DNA of 57,189 nt from an uncultured Actinomycetes bacterium. Its GTDB lineage: Bacteria > Actinomycetota > Actinomycetes > Nanopelagicales > Nanopelagicaceae. The notes beneath the pieces were generated by a model. It worked only from the letters and a program-made list of their open reading frames with translations. It was not told the origin of the DNA and searched no databases. The stretch covers positions 1 to 57,189 of the forward strand of contig CAIWWH010000031.1 in NCBI GenBank assembly GCA_903916385.1, given 5' to 3'. Of this stretch, positions 1,194-54,703 are shown one piece after another (the stretch's first letter is position 1; every line of letters starts with the position of its first letter). The position numbers and the translations under genes are program-made.

Positions 1194-1606
1194 TGGCGAT
1201 CACACAATTTGAAGACTTCGCTCCGGAGCTTCCACAGCGTTCTCGCGTAAGAGAATTTGCTGATCAAACTCGAGCAGCGTTACGCCTCGTACCAGATTTA
1301 ACAGTCGATAACAGCCAAGCTGTCAGCAATCGCGCCTTCTTCGCCTTTCTTATCGGTGTTTTTACTGCTGGGCTCCTTCTCCTGCTCAGCATAAATACGG
1401 CGCTCACCTCTGGTGCGTTCACGCTAGAGAATATGAAGCTCCACCTCGCGGCCGTAAACGATCAACGCGATGCGGTGCTCAATCAAGTGGCAACATTTTC
1501 CTCTCCCGACAACTTGGCGATCAACGCCACCAAATTGGGGATGCTGCCGCAGACGGGGATCAATTTCCTCGATATAAATACCGCATCACCGGGACCCACT
1601 AAATGA
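1193..1606 (+). CDS. ftsL: FtsL-like septation membrane protein
   Basis: 137 aa with a single TM helix (FFAFLIGVFTAGLLLLLSI). It occupies the conserved slot between rsmH and ftsI. The start overlaps the rsmH stop (TAATG) and the stop overlaps the ftsI start. Confidence 0.6.
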   Translation: MAITQFEDFAPELPQRSRVREFADQTRAALRLVPDLTVDNSQAVSNRAFFAFLIGVFTAGLLLLLSINTALTSGAFTLENMKLHLAAVNDQRDAVLNQVATFSSPDNLAINATKLGMLPQTGINFLDINTASPGPTK

Positions 1607-19500: not shown

Positions 19501-19652
19501 TAGAAGGTCCACCCTGGAGCGCCATCGCGGGCCGAAACGCTCTTGGCGAATATCTCGTTCTGCTCCCAGAAATTCAGGATCTGATGCTCTGTTGCGGGGA
19601 GGTCGATCTGAGGTGGGAGGCTCTTAAATGGGCTGGAACCCTGCGCTGCCAT
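16515..19652 (-). CDS. ileS: Isoleucine--tRNA ligase (long, type 2 form common in Actinobacteria)
   Basis: About 1045 aa starting MAAQGSSPFKSLPP.... Class I synthetase motifs are present (TANGSPGTHH and KMSKHLGN). The start is placed at AUG 19652 because GAGGAG lies 5 nt upstream. The track's start at 19745 adds a repeat-derived extension with no SD. Confidence 0.93.
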   Translation of the reverse strand: MAAQGSSPFKSLPPQIDLPATEHQILNFWEQNEIFAKSVSARDGAPGWTFYEGPPTANGSPGTHHIEARAFKDLFPRYQTMKGMQVVRKAGWDCHGLPVEIAVEKELGFSGKGDIEKYGIAAFNEKCRESVQRHVDEFTAMTRRMGFWVDFDEAYWTMSPEYVESVWWSLQQIWKKGLLVQDHRVAPYCPRCGTGLSDHELAQGYETVVDPSVYIRFPATSGVIAELGASFLVWTTTPWTLVSNTAIAVNPKVEYQVCEIPTDAGSERLVIASNLAHILGEERKVVATFLGTELEKTTYQRPLDLIEIPDSHYIVLADYVTVEDGTGLVHQSPAFGADDFLVSRRYGLPVVNPMAPDGKFLADVPLVGGIFFKEADKTLVRELKSRGVLFRQLQFEHSYPHCWRCHTPLMYYAQPSWYIRTTAIKDELLAQNAKTDWHPETIKTGRFGDWLENNIDWAISRNRYWGTPLPLWRCPEGHLHCVGSLAELSELSGKDVSATDPHRPFVDDISFPCAECSQTMNRVSEVIDCWYDSGAMPFAQWGYPHKEGSVEALNAAYPADFIAEAIDQTRGWFYTLMTIGTLVFDESSYKTVLCLGHILDKDGRKMSKHLGNVLQPIPLMDQHGADAVRWYMLAAGSPWSARRVGHDALSDVVRKTLLTYWNTVSFFTLYASATDFHISESATPSSVTMDRWIISELNSLVVAVDAAYTAFDSQEVGRLLATFIDDLSNWYVRRSRRRFWDGDLDALNTLFACLKSLTQLMSPMVPFITEHVWQTLIRVGEPTATESVHLSSFPIADTTVIDTHLSAAVALSRRLVELGRAARAESKIKIRQPLARALVAASGWNAMDSEIREHIKDELNVLQLDLLSDESEDLVSISIKANFRSIGARYGADVQAIAAAIAGADAAHLVQHLRKDGTYSLSYGEESADLTAEDLVITETPKEGWSVATHSGESLALDLALTPALVRAGLAREVIRTIQEQRKSSGFEISDRIHVLWNGGTDLEAAINEFAVQISEEVLALSIAKDAKLSIDENEIGLGLTLTKA

Positions 19653-19680
19653 CTCAACTCCTCGCTCTCGCTGCTCTTTA

Positions 19681-19746
19681 CCCGTGACTGGACCCGTGCC
19701 TGGACCCGTGACTGGACCCGTGACTGGACCCGTGACTGGACCCATG
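19681..19746. repeat. Tandem repeat, 5 x 12 nt (plus strand CCCGTGACTGGA) plus a truncated sixth copy, in the ileS 5' leader
   Basis: Copies at 19681, 19693 (one A>C change), 19705, 19717 and 19729, then CCCATG. It is in frame with ileS, reading GPVT repeats in the ORF track. Confidence 0.95.
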
Positions 19747-25200: not shown

Positions 25201-25760
25201 TTGAGCATGTCTTGCGAGCAGCCGTAGATATGCCTCTCTCTCAAATTGCCGAAGATTCAGTCGGGCACGAACAGGTCGTCAATATCGGCGGGTTAATCAC
25301 CCAGATTCAACGCAAGGTTTCTAAACAGGGCAATTCGTGGGCGATCGTCTCGATTGAGGATCTTGAAGGAGCGGTGGATGTCCTCTTCTTCGCTGCGACA
25401 TACCAGGCTCATGCTCTCAATCTGGTTGAGGATCGAGTCATCGTCGTACGTGGGCGTATCGATAAGCGTGAAGAAGCGCCTCGAATCACTGCTCTTGATA
25501 TGACGATTCCGGATGTTTCGACCGCACCCACTGGCCCGTTGGTTATCACTATGGATGCCACTCGAGTTACCCCACCTGTCGTCGACCGGATGAAGGAGAT
25601 CCTCCGCTCCCACCCTGGCTCCCGCGAAGTGCACCTCAAGTTGGATGATGGAAATAAGGGATTGGTTATGAAGATCGATGACGATCTACGCGTAACAGCC
25701 TCTCCAAGTTTGAGCGCTGACCTGAAATCGGTGCTCGGCCCAGATTGCCTTGTGCTCTAG
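22242..25760 (+). CDS. dnaE: DNA polymerase III alpha subunit
   Basis: 1172 aa with PHP-domain N-terminus FVHLHVHTEYSMLDGA. Full-length DnaE1 architecture. GTG start. Confidence 0.96.
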   Translation: MSQNSSFVHLHVHTEYSMLDGAARVEELVKEVARQEMPAIAITDHGNVFGAFEFNKQARKAGVKPIIGIEAYVAPESRFDKRRVKWAEGGEDDVSGGGAYTHMTLLAEDNTGLANLFKLSSLASLEGFYYKPRMDRELLAQYSKGIIATTGCPGGEIQTRLRMGAYKEAITAASELRDIFGRENFYLEIMDHGIDVETRVKKDLLKLGKDLGLPLLATNDLHYTKNEDSVAHEALLCVQSGSTIADPKRFKFDNDQFYLKSAREMRELFKEFPESCDNTLLIAERCNVSLREGENLLPQFSVPEGESEDSWLTKLAQAGLSERLNGSIPPTYQERLDYELSVMIKMGFPGYFLVVSDLCAHAREVGIRVGPGRGSAAGSLVSYALGITALDPIRHGLLFERFLNPERISMPDIDLDFDERRRSEMIAYATNKYGEDRVAQIITYSNIKSKQALKDATRVLGYPYAIGDKITKALPPTIMGKDITLSGIFDPKNDRYGEAGEFRSVYETDSDAKRIVDTARGLEGLKRQWGVHAAGVILSKEPLLEVIPIHRRESDGAIITQFDMGACEATGLLKMDFLGLRNLSVLDDCLLNIKKNQGIDVDLATLALDDSKTYELLGKGETLGVFQLDGGPMRALLRQMAPDSFEDISAVIALYRPGPMGVNAHTDYADRKNRRKPVEPIHEELSEPLAEILGDTYGLIVYQEQVMAIAQKVAGFSLGRADLLRKAMGKKNKEILDKEYVNFEEGMTSGGFGKAAIKKLWDTLIPFSDYAFNRAHSAGYGLVSYWTAYLKANYPTEYMAALLTSVRDDKDKSALYLNECRRMGIKVLPPDVNESSSDYTPLGSDIRFGLTAIRNVGENVVASIVANRESKGRFTSFGDFLAKVDQQVCNKKTIESLIKAGAFDSLGATRRGLMMVYLEAIDSVSEAKRAEAIGQFDLFGSAPADTGSNITGVELDIPSGEWDKNLLLSYEREMLGLYVSDHPLLGIEHVLRAAVDMPLSQIAEDSVGHEQVVNIGGLITQIQRKVSKQGNSWAIVSIEDLEGAVDVLFFAATYQAHALNLVEDRVIVVRGRIDKREEAPRITALDMTIPDVSTAPTGPLVITMDATRVTPPVVDRMKEILRSHPGSREVHLKLDDGNKGLVMKIDDDLRVTASPSLSADLKSVLGPDCLVL

Positions 25761-38071: not shown

Positions 38072-38179
38072 AGTGGCGCGGGTCCTGCCCGCAAGTTGAT
38101 AGTCTTTCCCATTGCTCGGGCTTGCCGCGGGCGCAATTCGTTGGGCCATCGTCGTCCCGACCGTTCTCTAGGAGCGTTC

Positions 38180-41100
38180 GTGACACTTTTTTCCTCTCTG
38201 CCATCTGCCCAGGGCCTCTACAACCCGGCCGATGAACACGATGCATGTGGTGTTGCGATGGTTGCTACCCTTAAAAAAGAGCCAACTCACGAGATCGTCT
38301 CCCAAGCTCTAACCGCCTTGCGCAATATGGAGCACCGTGGTGCCTCGGGAGCTGAACCAGATAGTGGCGATGGCGCCGGAATCTTGATCCGCATCCCGGA
38401 TGAGTTCTACCGCAGCGTCGTCGAATTCGATCTCCCTCCAGTGGGTTCCTATGCGACGGGTATTGCATTTATAGATAAGGAATTTGATGATCTTCCCGGG
38501 ATTGTGAAGATCGCTGATGAAGAGAACCTCACGATTCTCGGTTGGCGCGAACTTCCAACCGATGATTCATCTTTGGGCACAACAGCTCTCTCTGTTATGC
38601 CGCGCTTTGTTCAACTCTTTATCGCTGGCCAGGGCGGCGAGAGCGATCTCGAGCTCGATCGTCTGGCGTTCTGCTTCCGCAAGCGGGTAGAACATGGTCT
38701 GCCAATTTATTTTCCTTCGCTCTCCGCGCGAACCATCGTGTATAAAGGGATGCTCACGACTGGGCAATTAGAGGATTTCTTCCCCGATCTCTCCAACGAA
38801 CTCGTCAAATCTCCGTTAGCTCTTGTGCACTCACGTTTCTCGACAAATACCTTTCCTTCTTGGCCGCTGGCTCACCCTTACCGCTACATCGCACACAATG
38901 GTGAGATCAATACCGTCCGGGGAAATCGCAACTGGATGCGCGCCCGTGAAGCGCTGCTTTCAAGCCCGCTCATTCCTGGTGACATCTCTCGTCTCTTCCC
39001 GATCGTAGACACTCATGGCAGTGACTCTGCATCCTTTGATGAAGTTCTAGAACTCTTGTACCTCACGGGGCGATCATTGCCGCACTCCATCTTGATGATG
39101 ATTCCCGAAGCGTGGGAGAACAGCACGACCATGTCGCAGGAGCAACGCGACTTCTATGCCTTCCATGCATCTCTGATGGAGCCATGGGATGGTCCGGCCT
39201 GCGTGACCTTTACTGATGGTTCTCAGGTAGGCGCGGTGCTCGATCGCAATGGACTACGCCCTTCGCGTTTTTGGGTAACCGACGGTGGCTTGGTAATTCT
39301 CGCCTCCGAAGTTGGGGTTCTCGATATAGATCCAACGAAAGTTGTCCGTAAAGGTCGCTTGCAACCTGGACGGATGTTCCTTGTTGATATCGCCGAAGGG
39401 CGCATCATCGAAGATAGCGAGATAAAGAGCGCGCTCGCTAGCGCAGAACCTTATGGGGAGTGGTTGGCCGAAGGAATCGTTCGCCTTGCTGACCTTCCTT
39501 CTCGTGAACACATTATTTATCCGCACTCTTCTGTCATTCGTCGCCAGCGCGCCTTTGGATATACCGAAGAGGAGTTGCGAGTCATAATCGCACCAATGGC
39601 TAAGAATGGTGCCGAACCTCTTGGGTCCATGGGTACCGATACCCCTATCGCCGCTCTCTCCGAGAAGCCACGTTTACTCTTTGATTACTTCGCACAGCTA
39701 TTCGCTCAAGTAACGAACCCACCGCTCGATGCGATTCGCGAAGAGATGGTTACGAGTCTGGGACAGACAATCGGTGCGGAGTCCAACCTGCTTAGTCCAT
39801 CAGCCGACTCTTGCCGCCAGATCTCCCTTGATTTCCCTGTGATCGACAATGATGAACTCGCCAAGATCATTCACGTAAATGCCGACGGCGAGCATCCAGA
39901 TTTTGATGCCCACGTAGTTCGCGGACTCTTCCCAGCGCTCGGCGGGGGAGATGCGCTTCGTGATCGAATCGAAGAGATCCGCGCCGAAGTTTCTGAGGCA
40001 ATTAAAAACGGTGCGCGCATCGTCGTTCTCTCTGATCGTGACGGAGATAGCGAAGAGGCTCCGATTCCCTCACTTCTTCTCACTGCTGCAGTGCATCACC
40101 ACTTGATTCGCGAAAAAACACGTACTCGTGTCAGCCTCGTTATTGAGAGCGGCGAAGTTCGCGAGGTCCACCATGTTGCTCTTCTTGTTGGCTTTGGTGC
40201 CTCCGCAGTCAACCCATACCTCGCTATGGAGAGCGCTGAAGATCTCGTGCGACAAGGCGTCATCACTGGAATCACCCCGGAGAAGGCTGTCGCCAATCTG
40301 ATCAAGTCCCTTGGTAAGGGCGTCTTGAAGGTCATGTCAAAGATGGGAATCTCAACCATCGCCTCCTATCACGGAGCACAAGTCTTTGAAGCTATTGGAC
40401 TCTCATCCGAGGTAGTCGATGAGTACTTCACTGGGTTAACTTCACGTCTCGGCGGAGTCTCACTCGATATTTTGGCGCAAGAGACCATAAAGCGTCATCA
40501 CATCGCATACCCACCAATGGGCGAAATTCCAGGAACCAAGAAGTTGCCTATCGGCGGCGAGTACCAGTGGCGTCGCGAAGGGGAGCCGCATCTCTTCAAT
40601 CCTGAAACTGTATTTAAGTTGCAGCATGCCACTCGCGCCAAGCGCTACGACATCTTCAAGCAGTACACCACCCTTGTAGATAATCAAGCAAAGAACCTGA
40701 TGACACTGCGCGGGCTCTTCACCTTTAAAGAGGGTGCACGTAAACCGGTTCCGCTGGATGAAGTGGAATCCGCCAGCTCCATCATTAGCCGATTCGCAAC
40801 GGGCGCAATGTCCTATGGATCTATTTCACAAGAGGCACACGAGACTCTTGCCATTGCGATGAATCGCATCGGAGGAAAATCAAATACAGGTGAGGGTGGT
40901 GAAGATCCTGCTCGCAACATCGTCGATGCAAATGGGGACTCACGCCGCTCTGCAATCAAGCAAGTTGCCTCCGGTCGATTCGGCGTTACAAGCGAGTACC
41001 TCGTCAACTCCGATGATATTCAGATCAAGATGGCACAGGGCGCAAAGCCGGGCGAAGGCGGACAACTTCCTGGCAACAAGGTCTATCCCTGGATCGCTCA

Positions 41101-42694
41101 AGTCCGTTACTCCACGCCTGGTGTGGGTCTGATTTCACCTCCACCTCACCACGATATTTACTCCATTGAAGATCTGGCACAACTGATTCACGATCTAAAG
41201 AACGCCAATAAGAACGCCCGCGTTCACGTCAAACTTGTCGCAGAAGTGGGAGTCGGAACTGTCGCTGCTGGCGTATCTAAGGCACATGCAGATGTCGTCT
41301 TGATCTCGGGTCACGATGGCGGAACAGGGGCATCGCCATTGACCTCTCTCAAGCATGCAGGTGCACCGTGGGAACTTGGTCTTGCTGAAACGCAGCAGAC
41401 ATTAATGCTCAACGGCTTGCGCGATCGCATCGTCGTTCAAGTTGACGGTCAGATGAAGACCGGGCGCGATGTCGTGATTGCAGCCCTGCTGGGCGCGGAG
41501 GAGTTTGGTTTTGCCACAGCGCCGCTCGTCGTATCGGGTTGCGTCATGATGCGTGTCTGTCACCTCGACACCTGTCCAGTTGGAGTTGCAACCCAAAATC
41601 CAGAGTTGCGTAAGCGCTTCTCTGGAAAGCCTGAATTCGTCGAGACCTTCTTTGAGTACATTGCGGAAGAGGTACGTGAGTGGTTAGCAAAACTCGGCTT
41701 CCGTTCCATCGAAGAGGCGGTCGGCCAAGTTGAGCTTCTCGACACGCGCGATGCAATTGATCACTGGAAGGCCAGTGGCCTCGACCTTGCTCCGCTACTT
41801 AAAGCGCCACTTTTCGCTGGCTCTCGTAAGAACACCGGAGAGCAGGATCACGGATTGGCTGCCGCATTGGACAATACCCTGATTGAGCTTGCTCAACCTG
41901 CGTTAGTTGACGGCGAGATCACTCGCCTTCAGATGCCAGTGCGAAATGTAAATCGAACTGTGGGAACAATGCTCGGTGCAGAGATCACTCGTCGCTATGG
42001 CGGAGCAGGGTTACCCGAAGACACCATTGATATCTCTTTGCATGGTTCGGCAGGTCAATCCTTAGGTGCCTTTATCCCGCGCGGCCTGACCATTCGTCTC
42101 TACGGAGATGCTAATGACTATGTCGGTAAGGGTCTGTCTGGGGGTCGCGTGATTGTGCGCCCTGATGAGGGAGCGACTTTCCAGTCCGAGAAGAATGTCA
42201 TTGCAGGAAATGTCATCGGATACGGAGCGACGAGCGGAGAAATTTTCATCCGCGGCATCGTCGGAGAGCGCTTCTGCGTGCGAAACTCAGGTGCCACTGC
42301 GATCGTCGAAGGAGTCGGCGATCACGGCTGCGAATACATGACTGGTGGAGTAGCCGTTGTTCTCGGGGCAACGGGGAGAAACTTCGGAGCTGGAATGTCG
42401 GGCGGAGTCGCTTTTGTTCTCGACCTCGATCCGCGCTTGGTAAATCCAGATATGGTCGACGTCCTGACGTTGACTCCTTCGCGCTCCAAGCAACTGCATG
42501 ACCTCATCTCAAAGTACTACGCCGAGACTGGATCGCACGTTGCCGATTCTCTACTCAAAGGTTGGAGCACAGAAAGCTCGCGCATCTCCATGGTTATGCC
42601 ACGCGACTACGCAAAGGTACTGGCGGCAATGGAACGCGCTGAGCGTGAAGGACTTAACGTTGACGAGGCAGTAATGGAGGCGACACGTGGCTGA
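38180..42694 (+). CDS. gltB: Glutamate synthase large subunit
   Basis: About 1500 aa with an Ntn amidotransferase N-terminus (...[11 protein letters not shown]), FMN and GXGXG domains. GTG 38180 has AGGAG 5 nt upstream and is preferred over the track's TTG 38096. Confidence 0.95.
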
Positions 42695-44144
42695 TCCAAA
42701 GGGATTCCTGACTACGCAACGACAGACACCTACCCGTCGTCCTGTCGATGTGCGCATTAAAGATTGGAAGGAAGTTTACGAAGAGCAACCTTTCGCCGAT
42801 CTGCAGAAGCAAGCCGGTCGTTGTATGGATTGCGGTATTCCGTTTTGCCATCAAGGTTGCCCTCTCGGCAATCTGATTCCGGAGTGGAACGATCTCATTT
42901 GGCGCGGTGAGCGGCGCGAAGCAATCGATCGATTACACGCCACAAATAATTTCCCAGAGTTCACAGGTCGCCTCTGTCCTGCTCCCTGCGAAAGCGCATG
43001 TGTCGTCGCTATCAACGCCGATGCAGTAACCATTAAGCAGGTAGAGCTGCGGACGATCGAAGAGGCCTTTAGTGGTGGACTCGTCGTACCACTTCCACCA
43101 GATCGCCTGACGGGCAAGACGGTTGCGGTTGTCGGTTCGGGCCCCGCTGGGCTTGCTGCCGCACAACAGTTGACGCGAGCTGGTCACACTGTCGCGGTAT
43201 ACGAGCGTGCCGATCGCATCGGCGGCTTGCTGCGCTACGGAATTCCAGAATTCAAGATGGAGAAGTCCATCGTTGACCGTCGTATTGCTCAGATGGAGGC
43301 CGAGGGAACTCGCTTCCGTGCTGGTGTAAATGTGGGTGTAGATATCACCGGAGATGAACTTCGTACTAGATATGACGCCGTCGTACTCGCAATGGGAGCG
43401 ACGAACTGGCGTGATATCGCAGTGCCCGGGCGCGAGAACAAAGGGATCTATCAGGCGATGGAGTACCTGCCTTGGGGTAACAAGCAGGGCCTCGGTGAAC
43501 TTTCGACTGAACCGCCTATTAATGCTCATGGTAAGCACGTTGTAATTTTGGGTGGCGGAGATACAGGCGCTGACTGTCTTGGCACCGCGATTCGTCAAGG
43601 AGCTGCAAGTGTGACTCAACTCGAGATCATGCCGCGCCCTACCGAGGAGCGTCCCACAAATCAGCCATGGCCAACGTATCCAATGATCTATCGGGTAAGT
43701 AGCGCCCATGAAGAGGCTGGAGAGCGCCTCTATGCCGTCTCAACCGAGGAGTTCATCGGCGATGGGAGTGGAAACCTCAAAGCTTTGAAAATGGTTGAAA
43801 CGCAGTTCATTAATGGAAAGTTTGAGAAGGTCGAGGGCTCTGAACGCGAGATTCCTGCTGACCTTGTCTTCCTTGCCATGGGATTCCTTGGCCCTGAGAA
43901 GTCCGAGCTCATCTCACAACTCGAGGTGGCGCTGGATGAGCGGGGAAATGTTAAGCGAGATGAGAATTTTGCGACGAGCGAGGAGGGAATCTTCGTCTGT
44001 GGCGATGCAGGGCGCGGACAATCGCTGATTGTTTGGGCGATCGCCGAAGGGCGAAGCGCGGCCGCTGCGGTAGATGAATATTTAGTGGGGGAGACTGGCC
44101 TACCAGCGCCAATCCTGCCCACCGATAGGTCGCTGACCGTTTAG
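42687..44144 (+). CDS. gltD: Glutamate synthase small subunit (NADPH)
   Basis: 485 aa with Fe-S cysteine clusters and two dinucleotide folds ([23 protein letters not shown]). Overlaps the gltB stop. Confidence 0.95.
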
Positions 44145-44246: not shown

Positions 44247-45689
44247 ATGCGAAGAGCGAAAATTGTATGCACGATGGGTCCTGCCGTTGAATCCCCCGAG
44301 AAGGTTGCGGAGTTAATTGCCGCGGGCATGAATATGGCCCGACTCAACCTCTCCCATGGAGGCTATGACGAGCACCAGAACCGTCTCGACTTAGTTCGCG
44401 CCGCCGCTGCCGCGGCAGACCGTCCGGTTGCCATCTTGGTAGATCTACAAGGTCCAAAGATTCGCCTGGCTCGCTTCAAAGATGGTCCCCACGAGCTAGC
44501 CCGCGGAGATATCTTCACAATTACTACGGATGAGGTAGAAGGTACAAAAGAGAAGTGCGGAACCACCTATAAGGGCCTAGCAGGGGACTGCAAACCCGGA
44601 GATCGAATATTGATTGATGATGGCAAAGTTACCGTGGAAGTCGTCGAAGTAAATGGAAATGATGTTGTCACCAAGGTGATTCAGCCTGGATTTGTCAGCA
44701 ATAACAAGGGAATCAACCTTCCCGGTGTCGCTGTATCTGTGCCTGCGCTCTCCGAGAAAGATATGGATGATCTCCGTTGGGGTCTGCGGGCAGGCGCCGA
44801 CTTTATTGCGCTCTCCTTCGTACGCAACGCCAAGGATATTGATGACGTGCATCGCATTATGGATGAAGAGGGAATTCGCCGTCCGGTGATCGCAAAGATC
44901 GAGAAGCCGCAAGCCGTTGATAATTTGGAAGAGATCGTCGCTGCATTTGACGGCATCATGGTTGCACGTGGTGACCTTGGCGTCGAGATGCCTATCGAAG
45001 AGGTCCCGATTGTTCAAAAGCGCTGCATAGCACTTTCACGCGCGGCGGCTAAGCCAGTCATCGTGGCCACCCAGATGCTCGATTCGATGATCGTAAATTC
45101 CAGTCCTACGCGCGCCGAGGCCACTGACTGCGCAAATGCAGTTCTCGATGGTGCAGATGCCTTGATGCTCAGCGGAGAGACTTCGGTCGGAGCCTTCGCA
45201 ATTGAAGCCGTTGCGACCATGGCCCGCATCATCGCGCGCACCGAAGAGGCGATGCTTGATCAGATCGCCCCTCTAGGTCACAACCCAGTCACCAAAGGCG
45301 GGGCTATTACAAAGGCCGCGAAGGAGGTTGGTGAGATCGTCGGGGCTAAGTACCTCGTTGCCTTCACGCAGAGCGGCGATTCTGCTCGTCGCATCTCGCG
45401 TTTACGCTCTGCAATTCCAATCCTTGCGCTGACCCCAGAGGTGCCTGTTTACAACCAACTAGCTCTCTCATGGGGCGTTGAATCGCTCATCATCCCTATC
45501 GTCAGCCACACCGACGAGATGGTGAAGCAGGTAGATGCCCTTCTTATCGAGTCCGGCCGAGTTGCCAAGGGTGAGCCTGTCGTAATCATTGCCGGCGCCC
45601 CTCCAGGAATTCCAGGCTCTACAAATGCGCTCCGTGTTCATATTGTTGGAGATGCCATCAACGGAGTCGCTCCCGCTTATCGGAGCTAA
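44247..45689 (+). CDS. pyk: Pyruvate kinase
   Basis: 480 aa starting MRRAKIVCTMGPA, with MVARGDLGVE. Confidence 0.96.
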   Translation: MRRAKIVCTMGPAVESPEKVAELIAAGMNMARLNLSHGGYDEHQNRLDLVRAAAAAADRPVAILVDLQGPKIRLARFKDGPHELARGDIFTITTDEVEGTKEKCGTTYKGLAGDCKPGDRILIDDGKVTVEVVEVNGNDVVTKVIQPGFVSNNKGINLPGVAVSVPALSEKDMDDLRWGLRAGADFIALSFVRNAKDIDDVHRIMDEEGIRRPVIAKIEKPQAVDNLEEIVAAFDGIMVARGDLGVEMPIEEVPIVQKRCIALSRAAAKPVIVATQMLDSMIVNSSPTRAEATDCANAVLDGADALMLSGETSVGAFAIEAVATMARIIARTEEAMLDQIAPLGHNPVTKGGAITKAAKEVGEIVGAKYLVAFTQSGDSARRISRLRSAIPILALTPEVPVYNQLALSWGVESLIIPIVSHTDEMVKQVDALLIESGRVAKGEPVVIIAGAPPGIPGSTNALRVHIVGDAINGVAPAYRS

Positions 45690-45700
45690 TTTCCTACCGT

Positions 45701-45706
45701 TATACT
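45701..45706 (+). promoter_or_regulatory. Candidate -10 hexamer TATACT upstream of the tRNA/pdtaR unit
   Basis: A TANNNT match 12 nt after the pyk stop and about 37 nt upstream of the tRNA 5' end. A GCGCTC-12 nt-GAGCGC stem (45721-45744) lies between them. Confidence 0.3.
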
Positions 45707-45742
45707 CAGAACTTCCCGGCGCGCTCGCGTAGTCGGGAGAGC

Positions 45743-45815
45743 GCCTCGGTACTCCAACGGTAGAGAGGGCGGACTCAAAATCCGCACAGTGTCGGTTCAA
45801 ATCCGACTCGAGGCA
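45743..45815 (+). tRNA. tRNA with anticodon CAA (Leu by anticodon) but class-I architecture (5-nt variable loop); no encoded CCA
   Basis: Hand-folded cloverleaf. Acceptor 45743-49/45808-14 (7 bp, one G-U). U8. D stem 45752-54/45765-67 with loop AACGGUAG. Anticodon stem 45769-73/45781-85 with loop CUCAAAA. Variable loop ACAGU. T stem 45791-95/45803-07 with loop UUCAAAU. Discriminator A at 45815. Confidence 0.85.
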
Positions 45816-45816
45816 C

Positions 45817-46428
45817 ATGACAAAGTCTGAAAGCAAAGGCGCCGCACCCAGCGCTCCCTTGCGCATCCTCGTCGCCGAGGACGAGGCGATTATTCGCCTT
45901 GACCTCGTAGAGATGCTCACCGAAGCTGGCTACCAGGTAGTTGCTGAGGCAACCAATGGCGTGGAGGCGATCGCCTTTGCCAAGGAGCACCTGCCGGATA
46001 TCGCCATCCTCGACGTCAAGATGCCAGAGCTCGATGGAATCTCGGCCGCCGAGCAGATTATTGAGATCTCTCCGGTCCTGATGCTTACCGCATTTAGCCA
46101 GCGCGAGTTGGTAGAGCGCGCTCGCGACGCTGGGGCGATGGCCTATGTCGTCAAACCTTTCAGCATCTCGGATCTCGTTCCTGCGATCGAGATCGCTGTA
46201 AGTCGCCACCGTGAGCAGAAGGCCCTCCAAAATGAGGTCTCAGATCTCCAGGAGAGGCTAGAAACCCGGAAGATTATTGATCGCGCTAAGGGGATCTTGA
46301 TGAAGACCCTGAACCTTTCGGAGCCTGAATCCTTTAGCTGGATTCAGCGCACCGCCATGGATCGTCGTATTTCAATGAAAGATGTCGCCCTGGCTGTCAT
46401 CTCTCCAGATGCCGTCCCAGATAAGTAA
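45817..46428 (+). CDS. pdtaR: Orphan response regulator with ANTAR RNA-binding output domain (PdtaR orthologue)
   Basis: 203 aa with a receiver domain (ILVAEDEAIIRLDL, DVKMP, LTAFSQRELVERARDAGAMAYVVKPF) plus ANTAR (RKIIDRAKGILM...AMDRR). From memory it closely resembles M. tuberculosis Rv1626. Confidence 0.92.
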   Translation: MTKSESKGAAPSAPLRILVAEDEAIIRLDLVEMLTEAGYQVVAEATNGVEAIAFAKEHLPDIAILDVKMPELDGISAAEQIIEISPVLMLTAFSQRELVERARDAGAMAYVVKPFSISDLVPAIEIAVSRHREQKALQNEVSDLQERLETRKIIDRAKGILMKTLNLSEPESFSWIQRTAMDRRISMKDVALAVISPDAVPDK

Positions 46429-46494
46429 TACACGATTTAGACTCTTTGTAACAATAAAGTGATGCCCGTTTTGTGGCGATAAGTCTTGATCAAG

Positions 46495-46526
46495 AGGGAA
46501 GTGGAAGGTAGCCTTCACTCCTCCCT
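46495..46526 (+). promoter_or_regulatory. Imperfect 13-bp hairpin in the leader of the binding-protein gene, containing anti-SD-like CCUUC/CUCC tracts
   Basis: AGGGA-AGU(G)GAAGG-UAG-CCUUCACU(CC)UCCCU. The inner arm CCUUC (46512-16) can pair either with GAAGG at 46504-08 or with the SD GAAGG at 46548-52. Confidence 0.35.
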
Positions 46527-46557
46527 GTCCCGGGACAAAGAAAACAGGAAGGTAACA

Positions 46558-47832
46558 ATGACAAAACTCACTCGCGTAGTTAGTGTCGTTGCAGCCGCTT
46601 CCATGGTCGCGACTGCATTTGTTGCAGCAGCAGTTCCATCACAAGCAGCAGCAACTAAGACACTTGTAATCGCAACTGACGTTCCTCTTCAAGGTTCTTC
46701 ATTCGATTCAAATGACTCAACCAACAAGGCGATCGCTCTGTACCTCAAGTCGATCGGCGGCAAGGTTGGCAAGTATTCAATCACGCTTAAGTACTACGAC
46801 GATGCAACAGCAACTGCTGGAGCATGGGATGCTGGACAGTGTGCCCAGAACGCCCAAGCTCACGTAGCTAACAAGGCAGAAATCGCCGTTATCGGTACAT
46901 ATAACTCAGGTTGCGCCAAGATTGAGGTTCCAATTCTGAACCAAGATCCTAAGGGCCCAATGTTGATGGTTTCACAGGCAAACACCAACCCAGGACTTAC
47001 AAAGTCTTGGAACCCAGGTGAGCCAGATGTTTACTATCCAACAGGCGTTCGCAACTATGCACGTGTCTGCACAACAGACGACAACCAAGGTTCAGCTGCT
47101 GCTCAATTCGCTAAGTCAATTGGCGTCAAGAGCGTTTATGTCTTGAACGATACTCAGACCTACGGTCAAGGTGTTGCCCAGGCATTCACAACTGAGGCTA
47201 AGAAGGATGGACTTAACGTCCTTTCTAGCGGTCCTGCAGGTCAGGGCTGGGATGCAACACAGAGCGATTACACCGCTCTCTTCCAGAAGATCGCTCCATT
47301 GAACCCAGATATGGTCTACTTCGGCGGAATCTACGACAACAACGGTGGCCAGCTCCTCAAGGATAAGGTTGCAGTTCTCGGAGATAACACCAAGGTTAAG
47401 TTGATGGCTCCAGATGGATTCACTGGATACCCACAATTCAACTCAGATCCAAACGCTGCTGGTGCATACCTCACCTTCGCTGGTCTCTCTAACGAGCTCC
47501 TCGTCGCCAACAACCCTACGGGTGCTGGCGCTAAGTTCTTGGCTTCATACAAGAAGACCTACGGCAAGGCTCCAGTTGGCTCTTACCCAATCTACGGTGT
47601 AGCTGCTCTCCAAGTTATCTTGGCAGCAATTGCAAAGTCAGATGGAACTCGTAAGGGTGTAACAGAGGCTGTCTTCAGCGGAACTGGCGTAACAATTCCA
47701 GCTGCTCAGTCAGTACTTGGCAAGGCTCTCCACATCAGCACGCTGACCGGAGACACCACCGCTAAGGACATCACCGTCGAGCAAATCGTTGGTGGACAAG
47801 AGACAACACTGAAGGCCTGGACAGTTAAGTAG
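46558..47832 (+). CDS. Branched-chain amino-acid (HAAT family) ABC transporter substrate-binding protein
   Basis: Starts MTKLTRVV... with a signal peptide ending SQAAA, followed by a type I periplasmic binding fold. ATG 46558 has GGAAGG 5 nt upstream, and the track's TTG 46486 extension is rejected. Followed by livHMGF-type genes. Confidence 0.88.
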   Translation: MTKLTRVVSVVAAASMVATAFVAAAVPSQAAATKTLVIATDVPLQGSSFDSNDSTNKAIALYLKSIGGKVGKYSITLKYYDDATATAGAWDAGQCAQNAQAHVANKAEIAVIGTYNSGCAKIEVPILNQDPKGPMLMVSQANTNPGLTKSWNPGEPDVYYPTGVRNYARVCTTDDNQGSAAAQFAKSIGVKSVYVLNDTQTYGQGVAQAFTTEAKKDGLNVLSSGPAGQGWDATQSDYTALFQKIAPLNPDMVYFGGIYDNNGGQLLKDKVAVLGDNTKVKLMAPDGFTGYPQFNSDPNAAGAYLTFAGLSNELLVANNPTGAGAKFLASYKKTYGKAPVGSYPIYGVAALQVILAAIAKSDGTRKGVTEAVFSGTGVTIPAAQSVLGKALHISTLTGDTTAKDITVEQIVGGQETTLKAWTVK

Positions 47833-47871
47833 TAGATTCGTTCTATTAACTAATTAGTTCAACAGTTTAGA

Positions 47872-47907
47872 AATTAGATGGGGCTTGTTTACAAGCCCCA
47901 TCTAATT
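47872..47907 (+). terminator. 16-bp perfect stem-loop between the binding-protein gene and the permease genes
   Basis: AATTAGATGGGGCTTG-TTTA-CAAGCCCCATCTAATT. It begins 40 nt after the stop codon. Likely an intra-operon attenuator or mRNA-stabilising hairpin. Confidence 0.55.
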
Positions 47908-47942
47908 CTGTAAGAACCCGTATCCATCTAGAGGAGAACCAC

Positions 47943-48977
47943 GTGGCAGGCGTTACATATAAAACTCGCCAATTGCGCAGGCGGAATATTGAGAGATCTC
48001 TCGCGACGTTAGCGATTGCCGGCGCTTTATTCTGGCTATTAGAGAATTTTATTAAGTCTCCCACCCAGTTTACCGAGGTGACATTCACTGGCCTCAGTAA
48101 TGGAATCCTGTATGCGCTGATCGCGCTCGGATATACCTTGGTTTACGGAATTATTGAGCTGATCAACTTCGCTCACGGAGATCTCTTTATGCTCGGCGGA
48201 CTATTCTCGGCCCACTTCATCACCCTCTGGTTTGGAGAGCGCCACTCTTCAGGTAAGGGCTGGGGGGTTCTTCTTCTAGCTCTCATCTCGGTAATGATTT
48301 TTTGCGCGGTTATCAACATCACGATTGAGAGATTCGCGTATCGTCGCCTCCGTCGCGCACCGAAGCTAGCGCCACTTATTACCGCAGTTGGCATGTCATT
48401 CATTCTGCAGTTTGTTGGTTTGCGTTGGAATGGATCTGGTCAGAAGACTTGGCCCAGCCTTCTGCCTGCCGGAAATCTCGTTATCTTTAAAGTGAAGTTG
48501 CCTTACACAACCTTGATCTCATTCGCAGTAACCATTCCAGTTCTCCTTGCACTCAGTTACATCGTCACTCGTACCAAGCAAGGGAAGGCAATGCGCGCTA
48601 CTGCGCAAGATCAAGATGCCTCGCGCTTGATGGGCATTAACGTCAACCGAACCATCTCATTCACCTTCGCACTGGGTGGTGCACTTGCTGGAGCCGCCGG
48701 TCTGCTCTTTGAACAGACGCGTGGCCTAACCTCCTACAACCTCGGTTTCCAACTCGGACTCATCGCTTTCACCGCCGCAGTTATGGGCGGAATCGGAAAT
48801 CTGCAGGGCGCTGTACTTGGAGCCGTAATCATTGGTCTGATTCAGGGCTGGAACGATGGGTTACCGATTGGACTCGGACAACAGTGGTCCAACACCGTGG
48901 TCTTCTCGATCCTGATCCTTTTAATGGTCTTTAAACCTACTGGCCTGCTTGGCAAGCCAACGACAGAGAAGGTGTAA
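47943..48977 (+). CDS. livH: Branched-chain amino-acid ABC transporter permease (LivH type)
   Basis: 344-aa polytopic protein (LSNGILYALIALGYTLVYG). GTG start with GAGGAG 6 nt upstream. Confidence 0.88.
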   Translation: MAGVTYKTRQLRRRNIERSLATLAIAGALFWLLENFIKSPTQFTEVTFTGLSNGILYALIALGYTLVYGIIELINFAHGDLFMLGGLFSAHFITLWFGERHSSGKGWGVLLLALISVMIFCAVINITIERFAYRRLRRAPKLAPLITAVGMSFILQFVGLRWNGSGQKTWPSLLPAGNLVIFKVKLPYTTLISFAVTIPVLLALSYIVTRTKQGKAMRATAQDQDASRLMGINVNRTISFTFALGGALAGAAGLLFEQTRGLTSYNLGFQLGLIAFTAAVMGGIGNLQGAVLGAVIIGLIQGWNDGLPIGLGQQWSNTVVFSILILLMVFKPTGLLGKPTTEKV

Positions 48978-48981
48978 ATCG

Positions 48982-50187
48982 ATGTCAATCATTACTCGAA
49001 AGAAGAGCGGAAAGAAGCAGAGAGCTCCACTCTCGCAGCGGACTTGGTCAATCGGCTTTCTGAGCCTGGCCGTAGTCATCTACATCTTCTACACCTACAT
49101 CGTTCCGCACACCTCAGATGGATTCCAGAGTCAGATCCAGACCTGGTTCCCGCCATCAGCTCTCAATGAAGCGCTGGTCTGGGTGATTGCAGCCCTAGGT
49201 CTCAATATTGTGGTCGGCTATGCCGGGTTACTTGACCTTGGTTTCGTGGCCTTCTGGGCGATTGGTGGCTACACCGCCGGTTGGTTGATGTCAGGATTCT
49301 TCAATCAGTGGAATATCCACTTTGGCTCAGAGAGCGCAAAGGTAATCCCTGGTATCCACCTCTCCTTCTGGTTAGTTCTCATCCTTGGCGCGTTGCTCTG
49401 CGCCTTCTTTGGAATTGTCATCGGAGCACCAACGCTGCGTTTGAAGAGTGATTACTTAGCCATCGTGACTCTCGGCTTTGGAGAGATCATTCCTCAGATC
49501 TTTGTGAATGGTGAAAATATCCATGGATTTAATCTTTCGAATGGAACCAAAGGAATTTCCCCGGTGGATTCCATTGGAATCTTCGGCAAGCGCCTTGGGC
49601 CATTCGATCTGAACTACAAGTACATGATCTTCGTATTCATGGCTGCGCTCATGGTCTTTATCTCACTGCGCCTTCGCAGTGGACGTCTTGGTCGAGCCTG
49701 GCTCGCAATTCGCGAAGATGAACTTGCCGCCAGCATGATGGGCGTTCCGCTGATGAAGACGAAGCTTGCTGCTTACGCAGTGGGTGCGATCTCTGGTGGT
49801 CTCGCCGGTGTTGCTTACGCGACGCACGTTAACGGTATCTTTGCTGAGCGTTTTCAATTCTCCATCTCCATCATCCTTCTCGCCATGGTAGTTCTCGGCG
49901 GCATGGGTAATGTCTGGGGCGTTATGGTCGGAGCGCTGTTAATCGCGTGGGTTAACTCGACGGGTCTGCCTGCTCTTGGAAATGAGATCAATAGCACCTT
50001 CAAGACAAATATCAACTTCCCGTCATACACCTTCCTGATCTTCGGAGCGCTGCTCATCTTGATGATGCTCTTCCGTCGTGAGGGGTTGCTACCTGAATCA
50101 CGACTGAAGTTGATGCTGCACGAGAGCGATGCCGAAGAGGGCAATGAGGCGCCGCACGATCAAATTAGCGAAGAGGGGGCCATGTAA
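48982..50187 (+). CDS. livM: Branched-chain amino-acid ABC transporter permease (LivM type)
   Basis: About 400-aa polytopic protein (GYAGLLDLGFVAFWAIGGY). ATG 48982, just after the livH stop, is preferred. ATG 48949 remains possible. Confidence 0.86.
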   Translation: MSIITRKKSGKKQRAPLSQRTWSIGFLSLAVVIYIFYTYIVPHTSDGFQSQIQTWFPPSALNEALVWVIAALGLNIVVGYAGLLDLGFVAFWAIGGYTAGWLMSGFFNQWNIHFGSESAKVIPGIHLSFWLVLILGALLCAFFGIVIGAPTLRLKSDYLAIVTLGFGEIIPQIFVNGENIHGFNLSNGTKGISPVDSIGIFGKRLGPFDLNYKYMIFVFMAALMVFISLRLRSGRLGRAWLAIREDELAASMMGVPLMKTKLAAYAVGAISGGLAGVAYATHVNGIFAERFQFSISIILLAMVVLGGMGNVWGVMVGALLIAWVNSTGLPALGNEINSTFKTNINFPSYTFLIFGALLILMMLFRREGLLPESRLKLMLHESDAEEGNEAPHDQISEEGAM

Positions 50188-50978
50188 TGGCGCTAGATTC
50201 TGCTCCAGTTCTTGAAGCGAAGAACATCTCCGTTGAGTTCGGTGGGTTGAAGGCGGTAGATGATGTCTCCTTTGACATCCCCGACCGCAGCGTCGTCAGC
50301 CTCATCGGACCCAACGGTGCCGGTAAGACCACTTTCTTCAACGTCCTAACCGGTCTCTACAAGCCAACATCTGGCTTCGTCGTCTACAACGGCGAAGATA
50401 TCACCGGTGTAGTCCCACACAAGATCGCCGAGAAGGGAGTTGCTCGTACCTTCCAGAACATTCGCCTTTTCGGTCTTATGACTGCAGAAGAGAATGTCAT
50501 GGTCGCGATGCACTCGCACCTCAAGGCAGGAATCGTCGGAACCATTATCGGCACTCCACAGCAACGACGTGAAGAGCGCGAAGCACGCGAGGAAGCACAG
50601 GCTCTTCTCAACTTCGTTGGAATCGGAAAGACAGCAAAGGAGTTCGCGCGCAATCTCTCCTACGGCGATCAGCGTCGCCTCGAGGTTGCTCGCGCGCTAG
50701 CGCTTCGTCCTAAAGTTCTCTTGCTCGATGAGCCAACTGCAGGAATGAACCCCCAAGAATCGGCTGTCTTTGTCGACTTCGTCTATAAGGTGCGCGATGA
50801 GAAAGAGATTGCAATCCTCTTGATCGAACACGATATGTCAGTGGTCATGAAGGTCTCAGAGCGCATCACCGTTCTCGATCGTGGAACAAAGATCGCTGAA
50901 GGTTCACCAGCCGACATTAAATCCAACCCTCGCGTAATCGAGGCCTATCTCGGTAAGTCTGCGGAGGTTAATCACTAA
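50187..50978 (+). CDS. livG: Branched-chain amino-acid ABC transporter ATP-binding protein (LivG type)
   Basis: Walker A GPNGAGKTT, signature LSYGDQRRLE and Walker B LLLDEP. Confidence 0.92.
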   Translation: MALDSAPVLEAKNISVEFGGLKAVDDVSFDIPDRSVVSLIGPNGAGKTTFFNVLTGLYKPTSGFVVYNGEDITGVVPHKIAEKGVARTFQNIRLFGLMTAEENVMVAMHSHLKAGIVGTIIGTPQQRREEREAREEAQALLNFVGIGKTAKEFARNLSYGDQRRLEVARALALRPKVLLLDEPTAGMNPQESAVFVDFVYKVRDEKEIAILLIEHDMSVVMKVSERITVLDRGTKIAEGSPADIKSNPRVIEAYLGKSAEVNH

Positions 50979-52138: not shown

Positions 52139-54703
52139 ATGAAAAGGTTACTGCTGATTGATGGCCACTCAATGGCTTATCGCGCCTTCTACGCGCTACC
52201 CGTTGAAAACTTTCGCAGCAGTAAAGGTCAGCCCACCAATGCGATCTACGGCTTTGGCTCTATGCTCGTCAATCTGATCAGCAGCGAGAAGCCGACGCAC
52301 TTGGCGGTTGCATTCGATGTCTCGCGAAAGACCTTTCGCACTGAGATGTTCCCGGAGTACAAGGCAACTCGTGCGGCGACCCCCGATGAATTTCGATCGC
52401 AGATGTCTTATATAAATGAGCTCGTCGATGCTCTTGGTATTCAACGATTTGCCATCGAGGGATTTGAAGCCGATGACATTCTGGCAACTCTCTCTTCGCG
52501 AGCGGTGCTCGATGGATTTGAAGTACTTATTTGTACCGGCGATCGAGACTCGTTCCAATTGGTGACTCCCGAAATAACCGTCTTATACCCAAAAAAGGGT
52601 GTCACCGAGATGAGCCGCATGACTCCGGATGCGGTCTTTGAAAAGTATGGCTTGACTCCATTGCAGTATCCCGATTTTGCCGCGTTGCGCGGGGACCCCA
52701 GCGATAATCTACCTTCGGTTCCAGGTGTCGGTGAAAAGACAGCAACAAAGTGGATCGCAGATTTTGGATCCTTACAGAAACTAACCGATGCGATTGAAAC
52801 AATTCCTGGCAAGGTGGGGGAGTCACTCAGGGCAAATATTGGTCTTGTTCAACTTAATCGGGAGTTAACTGCCCTCCGCCACGACCTCGACATAGATACC
52901 AGCATCGCCGATCTAGAGTGGAAGGGTCCTGATTTCGCAGTTGCAGAACCTCTCCTAGATTCTCTTGAGATAAAAGCGCTGAAGGATCGGATACGCACCC
53001 TCGGAGGCAGCTCACCTAAAGTGGAAGAGGTTCGCGAGAAGGTAGATATCCCTACCATTTCAGATCAGGAGCTGGTTCGTAAGTTGAAAGGGCGCGTGGA
53101 ACCGATCGCCCTCTACACCGATGGCCTTTTTAGCGAGGGAAATTTCGCAGTTGCTCTTTCGGCGGATGAGGTCTACCGAGTTGAAGGCCCTGCAGGCGAG
53201 TGGATTTTGGATATCTCCCTTCCCAAGTGGCTGCATAACGCAAAGCGCTCACTGCGCGTACAAGAAATTGCTGGCGTCGCCTTTGATACCGAACTTGCTG
53301 CATACTTAATAAACCCCGGAGGTCGAAACTTAGAGATTGCAGATCTCACCCAACGTTTTTTAGAGATTTCGATTCCTGATGCCGCCGACGATCTCTTTGC
53401 GACCTACAACCCTCACCTCGCAGGAGCGATCTTTGCCCTCGTTCCTGTCCTGTGGCGCGAGATGGAAGATCGCAAATTAACGGATCTCTTTAATGATCTC
53501 GAAATGCCCACCCTCCTCGAACTTGCTGAGATGGAGCGCCTCGGGATCGCTGTGGATCGCAAGAAACTAGAAGCCCTGCGCTCCTTCTTCCTTGGTGAAG
53601 TAGAGCGAGAGACCAAAGCCGCACATGCAGTTGCAGGACATGAATTCAATATTGGTTCGCCAAAGCAACTTCAAGTCGTGCTCTTCGATGAGTTAAAGCT
53701 TCCTAAGACCAAAAAAATTAAGACGGGGTATACGACAGATGCCGAGAGTTTGGAAGGGTTGGCTGTTAAGACGGGTCATCCCATCTTGGCTCACCTCTTG
53801 CGGATCCGCGAAACCAGCAAGTTGCTGACGACTGTCGATGGACTTCTTGCGGCTACAACAAGCGATGGCAGAATTCACACCACATTTCAACAGACGGTCG
53901 CTGCGACCGGTCGCCTATCTTCCACCGATCCAAATTTGCAGAACATCCCGGTGCGTACCGAGGAAGGGCGTCAGATCCGAGATTGTTTCATCGCCGCTAC
54001 ACCCTATAAAAACTTGTTGACCGCCGATTACAGTCAGATTGAGATGCGGATTATGGCCCATCTCTCGCAAGATGCCGGGCTGATCGCCGCATTTAAGAGT
54101 GGGGAGGATCTGCATAGCACTGTGGGTTCTCAGGTTTTTGGAGTAGATGTAAAGAGCGTCACGCCCGAGATGCGCCGTCAGATTAAGGCGATGTCCTACG
54201 GGCTGGCATACGGACTCTCTGCCTTTGGGTTAGCGCAACAATTAAACCTCTCTCCGGGCGATGCCCAGGCTTTAATGCACCAGTACTTCCAACGCTTCGG
54301 CGGAATTCAGGATTACCTTAAAACTGTTGTCGATGAAGCTCGGACAAAGGGATATACCGAGACCATTCTCGGGCGCAGGCGTTATCTCCCTGATCTTTCC
54401 AGTGATAATCGGCAGCGGCGAGAAGTTGCCGAGCGCATGGCTCTTAACGCTCCGATCCAAGGATCTGCCGCAGATATCATCAAAGTTGCGATGCTCAACG
54501 TCTCGCATCTGATGAAGCAGAGAGATTTAAAGTCAAGACTTTTGCTGCAGGTGCATGACGAATTGATATTTGAAATTGCCGGTGCTGAAGAGGAAGAGCT
54601 CTCAACCTTGGTTCGTCAGGAGATGGAGTCCGCAGTGACTCTCTCGCTCCCTCTCTCGGTCAATATTGGGGTCGGAGCAAGTTGGGATCTAGCGGCGCAT
54701 TAA
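52139..54703 (+). CDS. polA: DNA polymerase I
   Basis: 854 aa with a 5'-nuclease N-terminus (LLLIDGHSMAYRAFYA) and family A polymerase motifs (DYSQIEMRI, RRQIKAMSYGLAYG, QVHDEL). Confidence 0.96.
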   Translation: MKRLLLIDGHSMAYRAFYALPVENFRSSKGQPTNAIYGFGSMLVNLISSEKPTHLAVAFDVSRKTFRTEMFPEYKATRAATPDEFRSQMSYINELVDALGIQRFAIEGFEADDILATLSSRAVLDGFEVLICTGDRDSFQLVTPEITVLYPKKGVTEMSRMTPDAVFEKYGLTPLQYPDFAALRGDPSDNLPSVPGVGEKTATKWIADFGSLQKLTDAIETIPGKVGESLRANIGLVQLNRELTALRHDLDIDTSIADLEWKGPDFAVAEPLLDSLEIKALKDRIRTLGGSSPKVEEVREKVDIPTISDQELVRKLKGRVEPIALYTDGLFSEGNFAVALSADEVYRVEGPAGEWILDISLPKWLHNAKRSLRVQEIAGVAFDTELAAYLINPGGRNLEIADLTQRFLEISIPDAADDLFATYNPHLAGAIFALVPVLWREMEDRKLTDLFNDLEMPTLLELAEMERLGIAVDRKKLEALRSFFLGEVERETKAAHAVAGHEFNIGSPKQLQVVLFDELKLPKTKKIKTGYTTDAESLEGLAVKTGHPILAHLLRIRETSKLLTTVDGLLAATTSDGRIHTTFQQTVAATGRLSSTDPNLQNIPVRTEEGRQIRDCFIAATPYKNLLTADYSQIEMRIMAHLSQDAGLIAAFKSGEDLHSTVGSQVFGVDVKSVTPEMRRQIKAMSYGLAYGLSAFGLAQQLNLSPGDAQALMHQYFQRFGGIQDYLKTVVDEARTKGYTETILGRRRYLPDLSSDNRQRREVAERMALNAPIQGSAADIIKVAMLNVSHLMKQRDLKSRLLLQVHDELIFEIAGAEEEELSTLVRQEMESAVTLSLPLSVNIGVGASWDLAAH

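Follow-up and report, generated by a model that had tools for sequence, protein, structure and literature searches.

A type-I tRNALeu(CAA) gene abutting pdtaR in an uncultured actinobacterium and the distribution of its relatives in Actinomycetota

A 73-nt tRNA gene in DNA from an uncultured freshwater, Nanopelagicales-like actinobacterium carries the anticodon CAA, which corresponds to the leucine codon UUG, on a class-I cloverleaf with a short variable loop. Canonical tRNALeu is class II, with a variable arm of 13 to 17 nt, compared with 5 nt here. The gene thus raises the question of which amino acid such a tRNA carries and whether it serves translation at all. A preliminary description of this DNA had offered three answers: an atypical leucine isoacceptor, a tRNA of another isotype with a mismatched anticodon, or a tRNA used outside translation. 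We analyzed the gene within a stretch of 57,189 nt (the window; G+C content, about 53%) and conclude, with a probability of roughly 90%, that its product is the type-I tRNALeu(CAA) of Actinobacteria, an ordinary elongator without the long variable arm.

A class-I cloverleaf with the anticodon CAA

The gene was detected in two ways. ARAGORN called tRNA-Leu(caa) at 45743-45816, which was its sole tRNA call in the window, and the general tRNA model of Rfam (RF00005) matched end to end over 45743-45815 with a score of 55.7 bits (gathering score, 29; E = 2.5e-9), as the only Rfam match in the window. The ARAGORN run had been proposed in the preliminary description as a check on its fold by hand, and the two agree on the anticodon. 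The positions of this and the other features discussed are collected in Table 1.

Table 1. Features of the window, in order of position
Feature	Position	Strand	Evidence or remark
Co-directional overlapping ORFs	1603-12368
IleRS-like class-I synthetase with DUF5915 tail	16515-19745
1172-aa ORF	22242-25760
gltB	38096-42694
gltD	42687-44144
Pyruvate kinase gene (pyk)	44247-45689	+	Pfam PK (2.4e-117) and PK_C; stop codon 53 nt before the tRNA
TATACT, candidate -10 hexamer for a tRNA(-pdtaR) transcript	45701-45706	+	Hand reading, weak
Type-I tRNALeu(CAA) gene, tRNA positions 1-73	45743-45815	+	ARAGORN, Rfam, family covariance model, covariation
Junction C-ATG: 1 nt after discriminator A73, then the pdtaR start codon	45816-45819	+	Conserved in relatives
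pdtaR-like response regulator gene, receiver and ANTAR RNA-binding domains, 203 aa	45817-46428	+	Pfam Response_reg (7.6e-26) and ANTAR (1.9e-22)
Two overlapping terminator-like hairpins with T runs, inside the pdtaR 5' end	45837-45854	-	Terminator scan
Branched-chain amino-acid ABC transporter set (binding protein, two permeases, more genes)	46486-50978
DNA polymerase I	52139-54703

The tRNA reads GCCUCGG-UA-CUCC-AACGGUAGA-GAG-G-GCGGA-CUCAAAA-UCCGC-ACAGU-GUCGG-UUCAAAU-CCGAC-UCGAGGC-A. Its acceptor stem has 7 bp (GCCUCGG/UCGAGGC), G7-U66 included, and U8, A14, A15, G18G19, and U48 are all present in the core. The anticodon stem of 5 bp (GCGGA/UCCGC) closes the 7-nt loop CUCAAAA, which places U33, the anticodon CAA, and A37. 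The T stem (GUCGG/CCGAC) includes G53-C61 and is followed through the T loop UUCAAAU to the discriminator A73. Between the anticodon and T stems lies the stemless loop ACAGU, which includes nucleotide 48; at 5 nt, it takes the place of the long variable arm of canonical class-II tRNALeu (>10 nt, with a stem), which is absent at 45743-45815. On rereading the sequence we recovered each of the cloverleaf elements that had been described before, as well as the CAA anticodon and the 5-nt ACAGU loop. The earlier account had passed over the D stem, which has just three standard pairs (CUC/GAG) and then a C13.A22 mismatch. The gene does not encode CCA; the genome reads C-A-U-G after A73. A different register of the anticodon loop, which would give UCA (an opal suppressor), was considered and rejected, because it would need a loop of 9 nt, whereas the family conserves a 5-bp stem and a 7-nt loop.

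Folded as a single sequence, the tRNA was modestly better than its shuffles (z = -2.53). This value is too weak to carry the structure alone, and the case for the structure therefore rests on covariation among relatives.

A family at a conserved locus in Actinomycetota

Relatives were sought with a pattern scan of 185,579 species genomes for short-arm CAA tRNAs, in which at least 120 loci matched. Because the scan itself fixed U33-CAA-A37-A38, class-I spacing to G52G53, a T loop, C61C62, and A73, their conservation does not count as independent evidence. The pattern placed no constraint on the stems, the D arm, U8, A14, or the 15:48 pair. ARAGORN called a short tRNA-Leu(caa) at 74 of the 120 listed loci, and these represent 58 distinct sequences, the one in the window included. 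The remaining matches, about 46 of those listed, were not called as short tRNA-Leu(caa) and come from sources such as Streptococcus, Maribacter, and archaeal metagenome-assembled genomes (MAGs); most are presumably chance hits to a degenerate pattern or other tRNA-like sequences.

The 58 distinct sequences (alignment A1) support the cloverleaf. Standard pairs filled 96.9% of the paired cells, and compensatory changes on both sides were found in 18 of the 20 pairs (222 cells). None of 500 shuffles reached the observed values, and no slid register came close. U8 and A14 were invariant (58/58). The tertiary Levitt pair 15:48 covaried perfectly, being A:U in 56 sequences and G:C in 2, both from Streptomyces, in agreement with the C48 reported for S. 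coelicolor. The variable loop was 5 nt long in all 57 distinct relatives of the window tRNA as well; ACAGU, the loop in the window, was the commonest (15/58), and ACAGC occurred in two Streptomyces. The C13.A22 mismatch was near-invariant (55/58), and the 31:39 pair that closes the anticodon loop (A1 columns 35 and 43) was nonstandard, A.C or C.U, in 34 of the 58, including most Streptomyces, compared with a standard A-U pair in the window.

These data also bear on a trivial explanation, that the gene is a class-II tRNALeu(CAA) whose variable arm was lost through an assembly or sequencing error. The one point in favor of such an artifact is that short-arm tRNALeu is rare among textbook bacteria. 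The identical 73 nt recur on metagenome contigs from three independent assemblies and in the species-level genomes of four other GTDB species, namely, an uncultured actinobacterium, Actinobacteria bacterium UBA3028, Candidatus Nanopelagicales bacterium, and Actinobacteria bacterium ZE-3nov15-139. Metatranscriptome contigs carry no variant in the tRNA, and the 5-nt loop recurs in every distinct relative. We regard the chance of an artifact as negligible, and the earlier suggestion that this copy might differ from a conventional tRNA by an assembly error is contradicted by the independent assemblies.

Most of the short tRNA-Leu(caa) loci among the matches listed belong to Actinomycetota and span many orders. 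They include numerous Streptomyces as well as Streptacidiphilus, Nonomuraea, Streptosporangium, Actinomadura, Mycobacterium, Corynebacterium, Bifidobacterium, Aeriscardovia, Pseudonocardiales, Micromonosporaceae, Glycomyces, Nanopelagicales, and Acidimicrobiales. The Streptomyces members of A1 are about 73 to 78% identical to the window tRNA.

The gene order in the window is gltB, gltD, pyk, the tRNA, pdtaR, and then branched-chain amino-acid ABC transporter genes. We assessed synteny by tblastn of the Pyk, PdtaR, GltD, and binding protein sequences of the window against all listed loci. Among the matches listed, pdtaR adjoins the tRNA in about 46 actinobacterial loci, at least 12 Streptomyces included, and in many of these pyk lies on the other side of the tRNA. 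The sharing of pyk - tRNA - pdtaR across actinobacterial loci indicates that this gene order is old. The exact PdtaR protein of the window was also found on many metagenome contigs. While the order of the three genes is kept, the tRNA alone is inverted between lineages. In most of them (Streptomyces, Mycobacterium, Nonomuraea, and others) it lies on the opposite strand, divergent from pdtaR and convergent with pyk; it is co-directional with pdtaR in the lineage of the window and in two Bifidobacteriaceae (L042 and L109).

Family membership was assessed with a covariance model (R1) built from 31 distinct pdtaR-linked sequences, from which the window, its identical relatives, and its lineage were left out. 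R1 scored the window tRNA at 87.5 bits (E = 2.8e-20), the only match in the 57 kb. On 26 other tRNA-rich loci, the next-best tRNAs with anticodons other than CAA were short-arm tRNALeu (57 to 73 bits). Other isotypes mostly reached 58 bits or less, with one tRNA-Cys at 67.4 bits, and class-II tRNALeu scored 21 to 25 bits. Judged by its sequence, structure, and synteny, the window tRNA is the orthologue of the type-I tRNALeu(CAA) of S. coelicolor.

That tRNA is already known and biochemically characterized in Streptomyces, and the window gene adds a member of its family from another actinobacterial order. The new element relative to the literature that we found is the breadth of the family in Actinomycetota, which is far wider than one biochemical paper implies. 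The short form appears to be the usual form of tRNALeu(CAA) across the phylum and, among the matches listed, already covers most major orders at the conserved locus. Our literature search on its wider distribution found an explicit treatment of bacterial type-I tRNALeu in one paper, Fan et al. 2019 (PMC6614811), which places it in some Streptomyces and calls its recognition mechanism rare. The S. coelicolor case is not mentioned in a 2023 review of tRNA identity, and a survey of cyanobacteria mentions 5-nt variable loops of tRNALeu only in passing. The preliminary description had objected that a CAA tRNA with a short arm departs from the normal leucine isotype; this holds for bacteria in general, but in Actinomycetota such tRNAs are widespread.

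Outside Actinomycetota, the short-arm tRNALeu(CAA) matches are housed in long tRNA gene arrays of the kind described by Tran et al. 2015 (PMC4758250) and Santamaria-Gomez et al. 2021 (PMC8421152). The window gene is unlike these, being a single, stand-alone gene in a conserved core-gene neighborhood. Thirteen listed loci were dense arrays with up to 30 tRNA genes in 8 kb, and their hosts were Acidobacteriota, Cyanobacteria, Verrucomicrobiota, Chloroflexota, Bacteroidota, and one actinobacterial MAG. The arrays carry short-arm tRNALeu with the anticodons UAA, CAG, GAG, and UAG in addition to CAA, which makes near-complete armless leucine sets. In two of them, L038 and L050, class-II tRNALeu genes lie within the same locus as the short-arm ones.

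Leucine identity and the decoding of UUG

The orthologue in S. coelicolor shows how an armless tRNALeu can be charged. This species has five tRNALeu isoacceptors, of which four are class II and the CAA isoacceptor alone is type I, with the 5-nt variable loop A44-C45-A46-G47-C48 (Fan et al. 2019, PMC6614811). Its single LeuRS (ScoLeuRS) leucylates the type-I tRNA with a Km of 0.16 uM and a kcat of 1.0 s-1, at an efficiency a little under half that for the class-II UAA isoacceptor. ScoLeuRS requires a 5-nt loop that includes nucleotide 48, 5 nt being the shortest loop with relatively high aminoacylation; which bases occupy the loop is not critical. U8-A14 is an identity element common to both types of S. 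coelicolor tRNALeu; C74 matters to the enzyme, and A73 is not an identity element (PMC6614811). The Streptomyces enzyme's leucine-specific domain (LSD), which is short and ends in Leu-Gly before KMSKS, tolerates the armless tRNA. In the same study, E. coli LeuRS was unable to charge the Streptomyces type-I tRNA and human mitochondrial LeuRS could charge it, while ScoLeuRS did not charge human mitochondrial tRNALeu(UUR). An attempted knockout of the type-I gene failed (PMC6614811), and according to the account of Pettersson and Kirsebom 2011 given in that paper, the type-I body with a UAA anticodon can replace bldA in vivo.

The window tRNA shares with the S. coelicolor type-I tRNA the CAA anticodon, the stemless 5-nt loop (ACAGU in the window, ACAGC in S. 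coelicolor), U8-A14, A73, and the layout of the D arm, and the fetched Streptomyces genomes share the pyk - tRNA - pdtaR neighborhood. There are also differences. Streptomyces belongs to another order; its 15:48 pair is G:C in S. coelicolor and A:U in the window; 31:39 is A.C or C.U in many relatives and A-U in the window; and the Streptomyces tRNA lies opposite to pdtaR, whereas that of the window is co-directional and abuts the pdtaR start codon.

The preliminary description had pointed to E. coli LeuRS identity features. A73, A15, and U48 are indeed present in the window tRNA, but the E. coli rules do not transfer: the Streptomyces type-I tRNA cannot be charged by E. coli LeuRS, and ScoLeuRS does not use A73 as an identity element. 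The D arm of the window tRNA reads CUC-C-AACGGUAGA-GAG, and those of the class-II tRNALeu in L038 and L050 read GUG-G-AAUGGCAGA-CAC and GCG-G-AAUUGGCAGA-CGC, respectively. All three follow one plan: a 3-bp stem, unpaired 13.22, A14, A15, G18G19, and a loop that ends in AGA. The likeness to canonical class-II tRNALeu (E. coli, L038, and L050) thus extends over the 3-bp D stem, the purine-rich D loop ending in AGA, A73, U8-A14, and A15:U48, and the amino acid is presumably the same; the variable arm sets the two apart.

This comparison bears directly on the possibility that the gene is the body of another class-I isotype (Met, Phe, Trp, or Cys) whose anticodon mutated to CAA, with the result that UUG would be mistranslated. 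The anticodon loop is one substitution from Met, Phe, and Trp loops, isotype-mismatched or anticodon-shifted CAA tRNAs likewise lack the long arm, and one tRNA-Cys scored 67.4 bits on R1. Against this stands the D arm, whose 3-bp stem, N13.A22, and AAyyGGyAGA loop give the layout of the class-II tRNALeu in L038 and L050. In addition, CAA and the body are conserved together over many actinobacterial orders at one syntenic position; the closest scorers on R1 are class-I tRNALeu of other anticodons, and Met, Phe, and Lys tRNAs do not exceed 58 bits compared with 87.5 bits for the window. Mismatched tRNAs are recent, lineage-restricted derivatives of another isotype, whereas the window gene is ancient and phylum-wide, and the S. 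coelicolor member of its family is charged with leucine by LeuRS (PMC6614811). The vicinity of the tRNA holds no spare synthetase gene; the IleRS-like one is 26 kb off. An isotype/anticodon mismatch, one of the three readings proposed earlier, is therefore highly unlikely; the tRNA falls instead into the type-I tRNALeu(CAA) family, of which the S. coelicolor member is leucylated, which bears out the reading of an atypical leucine isoacceptor.

A role outside translation was the third reading. Here the tRNA might be an aminoacyl donor in cell-wall or peptide synthesis, an RNA sensed by the ANTAR regulator, a processing signal for pdtaR, or a decaying pseudogene. The tight and ancient linkage to a regulator with an RNA-binding ANTAR domain would fit such a role, as would the way in which the tRNA abuts the pdtaR start codon in the lineage of the window. 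All decoding elements are intact, however, and the stems have been kept by compensatory changes across the phylum. UUG codons are common in the window; in S. coelicolor, deletion of the CAA isoacceptor was attempted without success and the body decodes in vivo (PMC6614811). A processing or punctuation role would moreover be an addition to decoding rather than an alternative to it. We found no support for a purely non-translational role and consider it very unlikely.

Decoding of UUG by a type-I tRNALeu(CAA) agrees with codon usage. In 31 ORFs of the window, UUG accounts for 270 of 1,564 leucine codons (17%), core genes included, so a decoder of UUG is needed. The gene would be transcribed from its own promoter 3' of pyk or by read-through from pyk. 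RNase P would trim the 5' end, and a 3' nuclease would trim after A73; since the genome reads A73-C-A-U-G, CCA would have to be added posttranscriptionally. The single LeuRS of the organism would then charge the tRNA with leucine, recognizing its overall L-shape, in place of a long arm, through U8-A14, a variable loop of exactly 5 nt that includes nucleotide 48, and the CCA end, and the charged tRNA would decode UUG. Such a LeuRS would require an LSD tolerant of armless tRNALeu, like that of S. coelicolor. We infer that the tRNA is charged with leucine in this organism, as its orthologue is in S. coelicolor, and that it is probably the organism's only CAA isoacceptor. No leuS was found in the 57-kb window, where the only class-I synthetase is the IleRS-like one (Table 1).

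Human mitochondrial type-I tRNALeu(UUR) is another tRNALeu with a short variable loop. It differs in being organellar, with a fragile, reduced structure, and its likeness to the window tRNA comes without a sign of common descent.

When an actinobacterial genome contains a CAA tRNA with a short arm, this is the expected tRNALeu and not a recoding device, which removes a false alarm. The breadth of the family has consequences for the rules of tRNA annotation, for how coevolution of LeuRS and tRNALeu is modeled, and for LeuRS/tRNALeu orthogonal pairs.

Transcription and the junction with pdtaR

The tRNA itself is largely ordinary, and the most novel aspect of the locus is its junction with pdtaR. 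CATG directly follows A73 in five species, namely, that of the window and those of L009, L023, L025, and L028, in which the 5' flank of the tRNA has fully diverged. The ATG of the junction opens the pdtaR frame in all five, and their N-terminal tails differ by whole codons. No in-frame pdtaR start was found further upstream in the five species, and in L023 and L028 the junction ATG is the sole ATG, GTG, or TTG before the conserved receiver motif RILVAEDE. These observations indicate that pdtaR starts one nucleotide after the tRNA.

The A73-C-ATG layout suggests a tRNA-mRNA co-transcript, from which cleavage may release a pdtaR message with almost no leader. Such cleavage, to an mRNA with a 1-nt leader, is plausible because Actinobacteria commonly have leaderless mRNAs. 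Alternatively, initiation could take place on the uncut precursor by way of GAGG in the 3' strand of the acceptor stem, but this motif is just 3 nt away from the ATG and is normally base-paired, two points against such initiation. A fuller proposal is that in this lineage the tRNA turned to face the same way as pdtaR and became fused to it, and that RNase Z or a similar nuclease cuts the co-transcript at the 3' end of the tRNA to leave a pdtaR mRNA with a 1-nt leader. We put this forward tentatively, as a possibility with rather less than an even chance of holding in all its parts. Cleavage of this kind, if real, would resemble mitochondrial tRNA punctuation and would couple synthesis of the PdtaR regulator to the transcription and processing of tRNALeu. 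The fusion would then be a clean natural case of tRNA processing that makes a leaderless bacterial mRNA.

The candidate -10 hexamer TATACT aligns with TAAAGT in L023, L025, and L028, just 3' of the pyk stop codon. A scan with the sigma-70 consensus found no convincing promoter in the 53-nt spacer between pyk and the tRNA and did not call TATACT; a weak site was found inside pyk only. A terminator scan around the tRNA found none on the + strand. The terminator-like hairpins on the - strand (Table 1) are probably due to chance, their number being near the shuffle expectation.

Metatranscriptome contigs over the window came from two freshwater runs; the RNA runs with the locus are labeled freshwater and freshwater-sediment metagenomes. 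One contig, about 96% identical, covers 45405-45842 and thus runs from the end of pyk through the spacer and the tRNA into the start of pdtaR. Another spans 45579-45814 and ends one nucleotide before A73, although contig ends are not the ends of molecules. In the sister species L023, two runs gave contigs that are continuous over pdtaR, the tRNA, and pyk at similar (flat) depth. Such contigs fit read-through or a co-transcript; being assembled, open to DNA carry-over, and silent on the mature tRNA and its processing, they are weak evidence of transcription.

The rest of the window resembles a core actinobacterial chromosome (Table 1), with no sign of a mobile element around the tRNA. A gene related to that of the transporter binding protein 3' of pdtaR occupies the same side of pdtaR in several other orders (L040, L051, L073, L110, L112, and L119). 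A leucine tRNA, a regulator with an ANTAR RNA-binding domain, and a Leu/Ile/Val-type transporter are thus neighbors, and any functional link among them is putative.
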